32,000 nucleotides of DNA from Trichodesmium erythraeum IMS101 (GTDB taxonomy: Bacteria; Cyanobacteriota; Cyanobacteriia; Cyanobacteriales; Microcoleaceae): NCBI RefSeq assembly GCF_000014265.1, contig NC_008312.1:4620001-4652000 (forward strand). The letters run 5' to 3'. This document shows, one piece after another, positions 17,845 through 19,001 of the stretch (position 1 is the first letter of the stretch; each line of letters opens with the position of its first letter). The notes below the pieces were generated by a model, which saw only the letters and a program-made list of their open reading frames with translations, ran no database searches and was not told the origin of the DNA. The position numbers and the translations under genes were made by a program.

Positions 17845-18954
17845 CTATACTGAAATAGGAGTAGAACTAGATGCTGCTAACTCTTGTAAACGCTCCTGTT
17901 GATCTTGGGTAATACAAGCTTGAATAACATTTTCTATATCTCCCTCCAAAAGAGGTACAAGAGAAAAGTTCTGATTTAAGCGATGATCTGTCACCCGATT
18001 ATCTTTATAATTATAAGTACGAATTTTTTCAGAACGGGAACCAGTACCTACTTGCGATCGCCTTATAGAACTCACTTCTGCTTGTTGCTCTTGTAACTTA
18101 ATCTCATAAAGTTTAGCCCGCAAAATCTGCATTGCTCGCTCCCTGTTTTGTAGCTGGCTCCGCTCCTGGGTACAAAAAATTCTAATTCCCGTAGGCTTGT
18201 GAAACAAATCTACAGCAGTTTCAACCTTGTTGACATTTTGTCCACCAGCTCCACCAGAACGAGCAGTTGACAATTCAATATCCTTTTGGTCTATTTCAAC
18301 TTCCACATCATCCACCTCTGGCATTATCGCCACTGTAGCAGTAGAAGTATGTACTCTTCCACCTGCTTCTGTAACTGGCACTCTTTGAACCCGATGAACT
18401 CCTGCTTCAAATTTGAGCTTACTATAAACGTGATCCCCTTTAATTTCTAAAATTGCTTCTTTAAAACCGCCCATATCTGCTAAAGATTCACTCAGCAAGC
18501 TCACCTTCCAGCTTTGGTTCTCTGAGTAGCGGGAGTACATTCTAACGAGATCTCCTGCCCAAATACTAGCTTCATCTCCTCCTGTACCAGCTCTAATCTC
18601 CAACATAATATTCTTATCATCGTTGGGGTCTCGTGGCAGTAGAGCAATTTTCATTTGATTTTCTAGAGATTCTAGTTTGGCTTCCAAATCTTCTACTTCA
18701 ACTTTGGCCATCTCTTGCATTTCCAAATCGCCAACAGCTTCTTTCAATATTTCCTTAGCATCAGCTAATTCTTCTTGAGCATTTTTCCACTCTACATAAC
18801 AATTTACAACTTCTTCCAGGGAAGAACGTGCTTTAGCTAATTTTTGGAACTCACTGGGGTCTTTAGCAACATCTGGATCGGCCAAACGCAGAGTTAATTC
18901 ATTATATGTTTGCTCTACAGATTTTAACTTATCTAATAAATATGTTTCAGCCAT
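17845..18954 (-). CDS. prfA: Peptide chain release factor 1.
   Basis: 369-aa ORF with the GGQ motif ([17 protein letters not shown]) and the RF1-type PxT tripeptide ([17 protein letters not shown]). It sits downstream of rpmE, as in other cyanobacteria. Confidence 0.95.
18054..18061. repeat. HIP1 octamer GCGATCGC.
   Basis: Exact match read in the sequence. Confidence 0.95.
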
Positions 18955-19001
18955 TATAAGTTGTCCTTTAAATATGTTTCAGCCATTGTCCGTTGTCCTT
19001 T
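18937..19001 (-). repeat. 32-bp tandem duplication of the prfA ribosome-binding region plus its first five and two-thirds codons.
   Basis: 18937-18969 matches 18969-19001 at 30 of 33 positions (offset 32). On the minus strand this reads AAAGGACAACGGACAATGGCTGAAACATATTT followed by AAAGGACAACTTATAATGGCTGAAACATATTT. Confidence 0.95.
18954..18986 (-). promoter_or_regulatory. Upstream 10-codon ORF ([10 protein letters not shown]) whose TAA stop overlaps the prfA ATG (TAATG).
   Basis: ATG at 18986-18984, preceded by the same AAGGA Shine-Dalgarno-like element as prfA. It lies 32 nt upstream of prfA, so it is out of frame. The stop is at 18956-18954 and the prfA ATG at 18954-18952. Whether it is translated is not known. 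Confidence 0.5.

Follow-up and report, generated by a model that had tools for sequence, protein, structure and literature searches.

A clade-specific tandem duplication of the prfA initiation region in Trichodesmium erythraeum

The translation start of prfA, the gene for release factor 1 (RF1), is present twice in Trichodesmium erythraeum IMS101. We examined it in a stretch of 32,000 nucleotides, hereafter the window, together with related loci, and found that the repeat, a tandem duplication of 32 nt, is genuine, confined to the T. erythraeum clade and fixed in natural populations. The reading we prefer, with a probability of roughly 0.65, is that of a young, neutral or mildly compensatory duplication of the prfA start within a remodelled rpmE-prfA spacer. 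The features of the duplicated region are as follows.

17845 to 18954, minus strand: prfA (release factor 1, 369 aa; PCRF and RF-1 domains)
18937 to 18968, minus strand: downstream copy of the 32-nt tandem duplication, AAGGACAACTTATAATGGCTGAAACATATTTA
within it, minus strand: SD-like AAGGA at 18968-18964, spacer CAACTTATA and the authentic prfA ATG at 18954-18952
18969 to 19000, minus strand: upstream copy of the 32-nt tandem duplication, AAGGACAACGGACAATGGCTGAAACATATTTA
within it, minus strand: SD-like AAGGA at 19000-18996, spacer CAACGGACA and an ATG at 18986-18984
18954 to 18986, minus strand: 10-codon uORF, seen on translation, with its TAA at 18956-18954

A 32-nt tandem repeat of the prfA initiation region with 30 of 33 identical positions had been described in an earlier note, and this was borne out both by reading the sequence and by Tandem Repeats Finder (18937-19001, period 32, 2.0 copies, 90% matches, score 109). 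The two copies lie head-to-tail with nothing between them and a 1-nt ambiguity (A) at the junction; 29 of 32 positions are identical, or 30 of 33 with the shared A just before them, at 19001, included, and all three mismatches are confined to the 5-nt spacer preceding the ATG. After its own ATG, the upstream copy carries 17 nt identical to the prfA start. A search with the downstream copy allowing up to three mismatches returned two sites only, namely the two copies, and the same search gave no matches in 100 dinucleotide shuffles. The alignment of the prfA product with its orthologues begins at residue 1, and the remaining members of its RF1 90% cluster are Trichodesmium MAG proteins.

Translation and coordinates likewise confirmed the out-of-frame 10-codon uORF and its TAATG overlap. 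The overlap lies at 18956-18952, where the uORF TAA shares A18954 with the prfA ATG, and the 32-nt offset places the uORF in the +1 frame relative to prfA. The initiation signal AAGGA-N9-ATG of the uORF is kept, in a copy that matches the ancestral initiation region of prfA at 31 of 32 positions, and the opening energy of the upstream copy, 3.4 kcal/mol, is similar to that of the real prfA start. Termination-reinitiation at the uORF/prfA overlap is mechanistically plausible. A promoter scan gave three matches against 6.8 expected from shuffles, which is below chance level; two of the three were disregarded because they lie inside the duplicate, so that transcription would begin within the ORF. 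A perfect TATAAT occurs at about 19034-19039, within a 911-bp element described below, as expected by chance in DNA so rich in AT. In the main text of a T. erythraeum dRNA-seq study (PMC4143802), prfA goes unmentioned.

The duplication was found in 14/14 independent T. erythraeum-clade contigs (metagenome or MAG) and is fixed, not polymorphic, in 15/15 T. erythraeum-clade sequences. It is absent from the 33 other Trichodesmium, Okeania and Dapis loci examined, all of which are single copy. A single copy with the spacer TGACA is carried by L001-L016 (Okeania, Dapis and Trichodesmium MAGs), by L084-L089, and by L090-L096 and L103 (other oceanic Trichodesmium); the single-copy state of the sister lineages makes the duplicated state the derived one. 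When metagenomes were scanned for the start region in either form, single or duplicated, only Okeania-like single-copy contigs came back. Across 80 cyanobacterial species, no uORF stop overlapping the prfA start was found (0/80). The conservation that the earlier note had proposed to look for in the prfA 5' regions of relatives is thus missing, both duplication and uORF being confined to the T. erythraeum clade. Short uORFs ahead of prfA in Coleofasciculus are incidental matches to ATGGAG (SD).

Compared with the ancestral single copy (AAGGACAACTGACAATG...), the upstream copy has one change, T to G, and the downstream copy has two changes in the spacer, TGACA to TTATA. The downstream copy is invariant in 14/14 clade contigs, and the duplicated 65 nt hold two variable sites in the upstream copy and none in the downstream copy. 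One of the two is an ATG to ATA change that removes the uORF start in L097, a single 3-kb metagenome contig in which the variant could be an error; taken as it stands, it suggests that the uORF is dispensable for prfA translation. In the flanking non-coding DNA about 1% of sites are variable, and the two variable sites in the 32 nt of the upstream copy compare with about 0.3 expected (Poisson P ~0.04, small numbers). The spacers of T. erythraeum and thiebautii-like sequences are 78% identical. The single fixed change in the upstream copy, against 3.5 expected (Poisson P(1 or fewer) ~0.14), would fit either a degree of constraint or mere youth.

The spacer in which the duplication sits has been enlarged by a further insertion.

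19004 to 19914, no strand assigned: 911-bp inverted-repeat element, directly upstream of the duplicated region
18996 to 19003, minus strand: putative 8-bp target-site duplication, right copy, GCAAAGGA
19915 to 19922, minus strand: putative target-site duplication, left copy, GCAAAAGA, 7/8 identical to the right copy

The termini of the element are 26-nt imperfect inverted repeats (19004-19029 and 19889-19914, 85% complementary), and the right target-site copy includes the SD-like AAGGA of the upstream copy. All non-erythraeum relatives have an empty orthologous site, in which ...AAAGGACAACTGACAATG runs uninterrupted, and the element is present in every T. erythraeum-clade contig with enough flank. 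None of its ORFs exceeds 40 aa, and Pfam gave no match in any of the six frames. Its inverted repeats, target duplication and empty site point to a putative non-autonomous TIR (MITE-like) element. With its 26-nt TIRs, 8-bp direct repeat, lack of a transposase and empty site in sister lineages it resembles MITE and IS insertions; unlike typical MITEs, it is longer, at 911 bp, and is found in one copy in the sequences compared, that is, the 32-kb window and the fetched loci. We also considered a decayed IS, and tblastn with the transposase of L098 together with the six-frame Pfam search found no transposase remnant. About 55 nt ahead of the uORF, that contig, L098, carries an additional IS that encodes a DDE transposase; this IS differs from the 911-bp element and sits inside it.

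Mainly through the 911-bp element, the rpmE-prfA spacer has grown from about 208 nt to 1245 nt in T. erythraeum. In other species the loop of the spacer hairpin holds from 0 to about 520 inserted nucleotides, and the region is an insertion hot spot. Element and duplication occur together in every clade member, and none of the loci compared has an intermediate genotype, with one of the two but not the other. A gap of 2-3 nt separates the duplication's left edge from the end of the element. We do not claim a mechanistic link on this ground, since the proximity is expected anyway: for a duplication extending into the ORF to be tolerated, it has to begin at or upstream of the SD.

Under the preferred reading, the element and its 8-bp target duplication, which includes the prfA SD, would have remodelled the rpmE-prfA spacer. 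In relatives, the RNA just past the end of rpmE is predicted to cover the ribosome-binding site of prfA, and the remodelling would have separated this strand (block 1, below) from the prfA ribosome-binding region. Ribosomes probably initiate at the upstream copy, whose SD, spacer and AUG are almost unchanged. They would then translate ten codons across the true SD and terminate at the UAA atop the prfA AUG, where a fraction of them may reinitiate, and the downstream copy should be able to recruit ribosomes independently. The duplication would be tolerated because this second copy has a complete start signal. The earlier note had offered a neutral duplication as the alternative to feedback on release-factor supply, and the restriction to one clade, the start-loss variant and the upstream-copy polymorphisms make it the better fit of the two.

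Termination-reinitiation at UAAUG or AUGA junctions is well known, for example at trpB-trpA and trpE-trpD. As in these pairs, the uORF stop shares one base with the downstream AUG, and the upstream cistron, here the uORF, has its own SD and AUG and would leave the terminating ribosome on the next start. Unlike them, the uORF is a 10-codon recent duplicate of prfA's own start, found in one clade, and the prfA start keeps a complete ribosome-binding site of its own, so coupling is not required. The duplication itself is of little importance; it shows how the unusually fluid non-coding DNA of T. erythraeum can reshape an essential gene's start without lethality.

More significant is the other end of the spacer, where three further features are located.

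20199 to 20471, minus strand: rpmE (ribosomal protein L31, 90 aa), with its TAG stop at 20201-20199
20165 to 20201, minus strand: block 1, 37 nt from the rpmE stop onwards, degenerated
20064 to 20078, minus strand: block 2, ACAGGCAACAATTAA, which pairs with the 3' half of block 1 in the ancestral inner hairpin

The stop codon UAA is recognised by both RF1 and RF2, and the RF1-specific codon is UAG. rpmE lies immediately upstream of prfA at 80/80 species loci, and its stop is TAG in 78/80 species by script and in 79/80 once L022 was inspected; in 66/80 cyanobacterial species the gene ends in TAGC. Ribosomal protein genes normally prefer UAA (PMC4989110). The RF1-specific signal in this locus is this near-invariant rpmE UAG, 1.2 kb upstream of the duplication.

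Block 1, which is present once per locus, is nearly invariant in relatives, where it is the predicted partner of the prfA SD, spacer and AUG. In T. erythraeum 7/37 of its positions have changed, versus 0-3 in 21 related lineages, a pattern suggesting that constraint on block 1 was lost in T. erythraeum only. The RNAalifold consensus of the spacers of 12 relatives has a 17-bp closing helix; the L001 spacer folds with an MFE of -33.5 kcal/mol (z = -6.0), and the duplex of block 1 with the ribosome-binding site gives z-scores of -4 to -6.7 in L001-L016. When the full 1271-nt spacer of T. erythraeum was folded, block 1 still paired with the downstream copy, at -13.5 kcal/mol in the window versus -21 to -23 kcal/mol in most relatives. 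In this pairing the G to T change of the downstream spacer faces a C to A change in block 1, a match that could hint at selection and that we estimate would arise by chance with a probability of about 0.13. Within the Trichodesmium group no double (compensatory) changes were seen in the helix, the sequence being too conserved.

As a general feature the helix between block 1 and the ribosome-binding site was rejected, being confined to the Trichodesmium/Okeania/Dapis group and a handful of lineages besides. A shorter helix that contains the rpmE stop codon is more widespread in cyanobacteria, and in other cyanobacteria both of its strands change (AAATAGC:GCTATTT, AAAGTAG:CTACTTT and GGTAGAG:CTCTACT). 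Compared with control windows, this stop-containing helix was found in 31/78 cases versus 3.6 expected, and in 27/62 at p<0.05 (phylogeny not modelled). Rfam returned no match for the window and eight related loci, which means that the structure of the spacer does not belong to a curated family. A dispersed family of heptamer repeats was discarded, as TTGTC and GACAA repeats show no enrichment in the window.

These observations raise the tentative idea, which we regard as rather unlikely, that cyanobacterial RF1 is autoregulated at the rpmE-prfA junction and that T. erythraeum is a natural mutant in which the uORF serves as replacement loading. A ribosome waiting for RF1 at the rpmE UAG would hold the helix open and so allow more prfA translation. 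In T. erythraeum, the mobile element would have split the two strands, with decay of the upstream one, and the doubled start and its overlapping uORF would provide a replacement route for loading ribosomes onto prfA. The UAG in 79 of the 80 species and the predicted pairing with the prfA start in many lineages offer a testable candidate for the missing RF1 feedback; if it is true, T. erythraeum would supply a natural disruption to set against its sister species.

Systems in which long-range pairing masks a ribosome-binding site until ribosomes translating the upstream cistron open it include rpmI-rplT (the IF3-L35-L20 operon), MS2 coat-replicase and secM-secA. As in those systems, the predicted helix of the relatives links the end of the upstream ORF with the prfA SD and AUG, and a ribosome at the rpmE stop would melt it. 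They differ from T. erythraeum, where a distance of 1.2 kb separates the partners and decay has affected the upstream strand, and from our case in general in that the cyanobacterial helix is a prediction. A further parallel is the autocontrol hypothesis for hemA(UAGC)-prfA in Salmonella and E. coli (Elliott 1989, in the summary given by PMC2680264). There, too, the gene ahead of prfA ends in the RF1-specific, weak UAGC, as cyanobacterial rpmE does in its TAGC. The upstream gene here is rpmE, not hemA, and the enteric model invokes read-through and reinitiation; according to unpublished data cited in PMC2680264, read-through of hemA contributed little RF1. Coupling by read-through from the rpmE UAG is also unlikely in the Trichodesmium group, because the next in-frame stop comes 19 codons on, far from prfA. 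For cyanobacterial rpmE-prfA, a mechanism of ribosome pausing and helix opening fits better than read-through.

A related possibility, which we judge unlikely, is that the element cut prfA off from its coupling to rpmE and that the duplication was selected in compensation, the mini-ORF bringing ribosomes to the AUG. This would make sense of the predicted sequestration of the prfA SD and AUG in relatives by sequence beginning at the rpmE stop, of the 1.2-kb separation of the pairing strands, the decay of block 1 and its weakened pairing with the downstream copy in T. erythraeum, and of the co-occurrence of duplication and element in all clade members. Against it, the opening energies of the ribosome-binding site are alike, at 3.4-5.1 kcal/mol, with or without element and duplication, as compared for the present sequence, reconstructed single-copy sequences with and without the element, and a thiebautii-like sequence. 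On the same values we rejected the more specific notion that the duplication relieves an occlusion of the ribosome-binding site made by the element. In addition, there is no intermediate genotype by which to order the events, and the start loss in L097 speaks against necessity.

The earlier note had proposed a different function, in which the uORF would be a dedicated sensor: prfA translation would follow the kinetics of termination and so provide feedback on the supply of release factors. We consider this very improbable. Its anatomy does suit termination-reinitiation, and the arrangement is fixed throughout the T. erythraeum clade. Since the ancestral spacer is TGACA, the uORF stop right after the duplication event would have been UGA, 2 nt ahead of the AUG, and two substitutions in the downstream spacer turned it into the exactly overlapping UAA, a shift that could be taken in favour of a sensor. 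The same history counts against one, however, as does the present stop: UAA is read by both factors, so it allows no RF1-specific report, and RF2 would buffer a shortage of RF1. Moreover, the arrangement exists in one species clade and in none of the 80 cyanobacterial species surveyed, L097 is a natural variant without the uORF AUG, and the sole local polymorphisms fall in the upstream copy. Local RNA folding shows the prfA ribosome-binding site to be as accessible as in relatives, so opening by the uORF is not needed. The proposed feedback thus finds no support.

The comparison with RF2 is instructive here. The prfB gene is autoregulated by +1 programmed frameshifting at an in-frame UGA, conserved in most bacterial phyla (PMC12421855), and autoregulation has been shown for prfB, with none reported for RF1/prfA (PMC12421855, PMC8073009). 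As in prfB, an early stop in a release-factor mRNA could in principle tie expression to termination efficiency. The prfB stop, however, is factor-specific (UGA for RF2), lies inside the ORF and needs a frameshift, whereas the prfA stop is a UAA in a separate uORF, involves no recoding and is found in a single clade.

Recoding was itself weighed, on account of one motif at the duplication junction.

18966 to 18972, minus strand: heptamer T_TTA_AAG, in the uORF frame

A -1 slip on U_UUA_AAG would carry a fraction of uORF ribosomes into the prfA frame and yield RF1 extended by 11 residues at its N terminus. The frame of the heptamer is right, no stop interrupts the prfA frame between 18978 and the ATG, and U_UU.A_AA.G has been listed as one of the efficient -1 motifs of E. 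coli (PMC4066793). Even the best of these reach only about 0.3% without stimulators, the value for U_UU.A_AA.G itself (PMC4066793), and neither a downstream stimulatory structure nor a correctly spaced upstream SD was identified. The heptamer also arises automatically from joining ...TATTT(A) to (A)AAGGA and is not conserved beyond the clade, and we regard such a product as highly improbable.

Finally, there is the possibility of an assembly or sequencing artefact or of a laboratory-strain mutation. An assembly artefact had been named by the earlier note as a possible refutation, and tandem repeats can indeed be mis-assembled. This explanation has practically no chance of being correct, as the identical structure, with independent SNPs around it, recurs in 14 contigs that differ in sample and in assembler (SPAdes, MEGAHIT, TARA scaffolds and NCBI MAGs).

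The tandem duplication at the start of prfA, the release factor 1 (RF1) gene, was confirmed by direct reading, translation and Tandem Repeats Finder (TRF), which reports a repeat of period 32 with 2.0 copies and 90% matches. The earlier note's description of a duplicated initiation region, an out-of-frame mini-ORF and a stop/start overlap is accurate in all details.

19000-18969, minus strand: upstream copy of the 32-nt duplication, read from the sequence, AAGGACAACGGACAATGGCTGAAACATATTTA
18968-18937, minus strand: downstream copy, directly abutting the upstream copy, AAGGACAACTTATAATGGCTGAAACATATTTA
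17845-18954, minus strand: prfA, release factor 1, 369 aa
19004-19914 (arms 19004-19029 and 19889-19914): 911-bp non-coding element with 26-nt imperfect terminal inverted repeats

With one copy as query and up to three mismatches allowed, two sites were found in the window, both belonging to the duplication, and the same search found none in 100 dinucleotide shuffles. The upstream ATG (18986) opens a uORF of 10 codons, whose TAA has one base in common with the prfA ATG; predicted accessibility is equal at the two starts. Both of its components, tandem duplication and a uORF with overlapping stop and start, are of familiar types.

We next compared prfA loci across cyanobacteria. The RF1 protein of the window clusters with Trichodesmium MAG proteins, and contigs of the T. 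erythraeum clade were gathered by look-up with this protein and variants 96-100% identical to it. All 14 clade contigs, drawn from various ocean samples and assemblers, have the duplication with an identical pair of spacers; therefore the assembly artefact considered in the earlier note is contradicted, a laboratory mutation is likewise ruled out, and the chance of an artefact is negligible. Outside the clade, the duplication is missing from the 16 nearest species representatives (Okeania, Dapis and Trichodesmium MAGs), six Okeania-like metagenome contigs, and eight contigs from other oceanic Trichodesmium whose RF1 is 94-96% identical; all of these carry a single copy, AAAGGACAACTGACA-ATGGCTGAAACATATTTA. 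Since these single-copy relatives all have TGACA, the ancestral spacer is TGACA, from which the upstream copy differs by one change (GGACA) and the downstream copy by two (TTATA). With the ancestral spacer, the uORF would have stopped at UGA, 2 nt ahead of the AUG. Conservation of the arrangement ends at the T. erythraeum clade: a uORF stop overlapping the prfA start occurs in 0 of 80 cyanobacterial species, and the few uORFs near prfA elsewhere are incidental ATGGAG matches inside the Shine-Dalgarno (SD) sequence.

Homology to relatives stops 2-3 nt upstream of the duplication. The 911-bp element is bordered by an 8-bp direct repeat, GCAAAAGA and GCAAAGGA, the right-hand one including the SD-like AAGGA, and its site is uninterrupted in relatives. 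Only the T. erythraeum clade has the element at this site, where every clade contig with sufficient flank carries it; the sequences available show a single copy. It contains no ORF above 40 aa, Pfam gives no match, and the transposase of clade contig L098 shows no similarity to it. That contig alone (L098:1-1080, window about 19041) carries an extra IS inside the element, ~55 nt upstream of the uORF, encoding a 291-aa DDE transposase (PF13737 and PF01609); this insertion may be a chimeric assembly. The rpmE-prfA spacer measures 1245 nt in the window; in sister Trichodesmium it is 208 nt long, and in Okeania and Dapis ~120 nt. Another T. erythraeum-specific insertion of ~100 nt (19923-20040, minus strand), between the second conserved spacer block and the 911-bp element, is missing from the spacers of sister Trichodesmium.

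Relatives' spacers share three short conserved blocks and are otherwise divergent. In the window, the counterparts of the first two blocks lie at 20165-20201 and 20064-20078. RNAalifold on 12 compact spacers predicts a 17-bp helix around a 15-bp hairpin; one strand of the helix lies in the ~21 nt starting with the rpmE stop codon, and the other comprises the prfA SD, spacer, AUG and second codon. The prediction applies to loci L001-L016, L084-L096 and L103 (Trichodesmium, Okeania and Dapis), with no match in Rfam; for the L001 spacer the folding energy is -33.5 kcal/mol (z = -6.0). The hairpin loop holds inserts of 0 to ~520 nt depending on species, with the blocks intact. No compensatory changes were found within this group, because both helix strands are nearly invariant. 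In T. erythraeum the partner strands lie 1.2 kb apart, and the 37 nt following the rpmE stop (block 1) carry 7 changes versus 0-3 in 21 lineages; by sequence comparison, this upstream strand appears free of constraint. The predicted duplex of block 1 with the downstream copy reaches -13.5 kcal/mol in the window, versus -21 to -23 in most relatives.

Against the window, nine clade contigs show no change in the downstream copy and two variable sites in the upstream one: three contigs have C to T at position -2 of the uORF ATG, and L097 has lost the start codon (ATG to ATA). Non-coding flanks vary at ~1% of sites. Such variation is not what purifying selection on the uORF would be expected to leave. 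The counts are low, and a single contig supports the start-loss allele. Separately, SNPs within prfA are clustered (window 17845-18520, codons about 145-369, against clade contigs L097-L102) at CDS 436-459, 521-650, 749-812 and 860-1106. Clade alleles hardly vary over the first 435 nt of prfA or anywhere in the kilobase upstream. Recombination with diverged alleles may account for this blockwise pattern, or the metagenome contigs may be chimeric.

Ribosomes would be expected to start at both AUGs; those on the uORF would pass over the true prfA SD before stopping at the prfA AUG, and some may reinitiate. We consider the duplication most likely neutral or mildly compensatory (probability about 0.65, jointly), since the uORF ends in UAA, is of recent origin and is dispensed with by at least one genotype, and since a full ribosome-binding site remains at the true start; neutrality was the alternative already offered by the earlier note. 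Selection of the duplication as a replacement for lost rpmE coupling, to which the weakened duplex is relevant, is unlikely. The feedback on release-factor supply that the earlier note proposed is improbable: the same UAA stop, young and dispensable uORF and complete ribosome-binding site all count against it, and nothing ties the uORF to release-factor levels. Still less credible is -1 frameshifting at U_UUA_AAG, a slippery heptamer made by the duplication junction in the uORF frame (T_TTA_AAG; 18966-18972, minus strand), where a slip would lead into prfA and lengthen RF1 by 11 residues. In JGI gene calls, some sister-Trichodesmium RF1 genes (P0022 and P0027, 405 aa) are given 36 additional residues at the N-terminus, probably through starts placed too far into the spacer.

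The rpmE-prfA junction has a conserved arrangement of a UAG and a predicted helix, naturally disrupted in T. erythraeum. UAG is the RF1-specific stop. Directly upstream of prfA in 80 of 80 species loci, rpmE ends in TAG in 78 by script and 79 after inspection (L022 is also TAG; window stop 20199-20201, minus strand), with the tetranucleotide TAGC in 66 of the 80 species. Among control genes of these same loci, TAG ends rpsI in 9/76, rplM in 0/76, prfA in 24/80 and all long ORFs in 31%. In many of loci L019-L080, the rpmE stop region is complementary to a segment that contains CUA and lies 20-30 nt ahead of the prfA ATG, 5' of the SD, and the pairs vary by lineage on both strands (GAAATAGC:GCTATTTC, AAAGTAG:CTACTTT, GGTAGAG:CTCTACT). 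Counting loci singly, a perfect 6-mer complement spanning the entire stop occurs in 31/78 loci versus 3.6 expected (~9-fold), and the stop-containing helix exceeds 95% of control windows in 27/62 loci outside the Trichodesmium group. On sequence grounds, the RF1-specific signal is at the rpmE stop, not at the uORF. We infer only that a ribosome stalled at the rpmE UAG through RF1 shortage would hold the helix open, exposing the prfA start. The arrangement resembles the old hemA-UAGC-prfA idea for enteric bacteria, where read-through was reported not to supply much RF1 (PMC2680264); according to recent work, no RF1 autoregulation is known (PMC8073009; PMC12421855). The L31 protein encoded by rpmE in the window has a Lys/Ser-rich C-terminal tail (SGSKSNKSKSTKSKKGKGKK; 20199-20260, minus strand), whose coding DNA is made up of imperfect tandem repeats, 6-15 nt long (TRF, 20220-20256).
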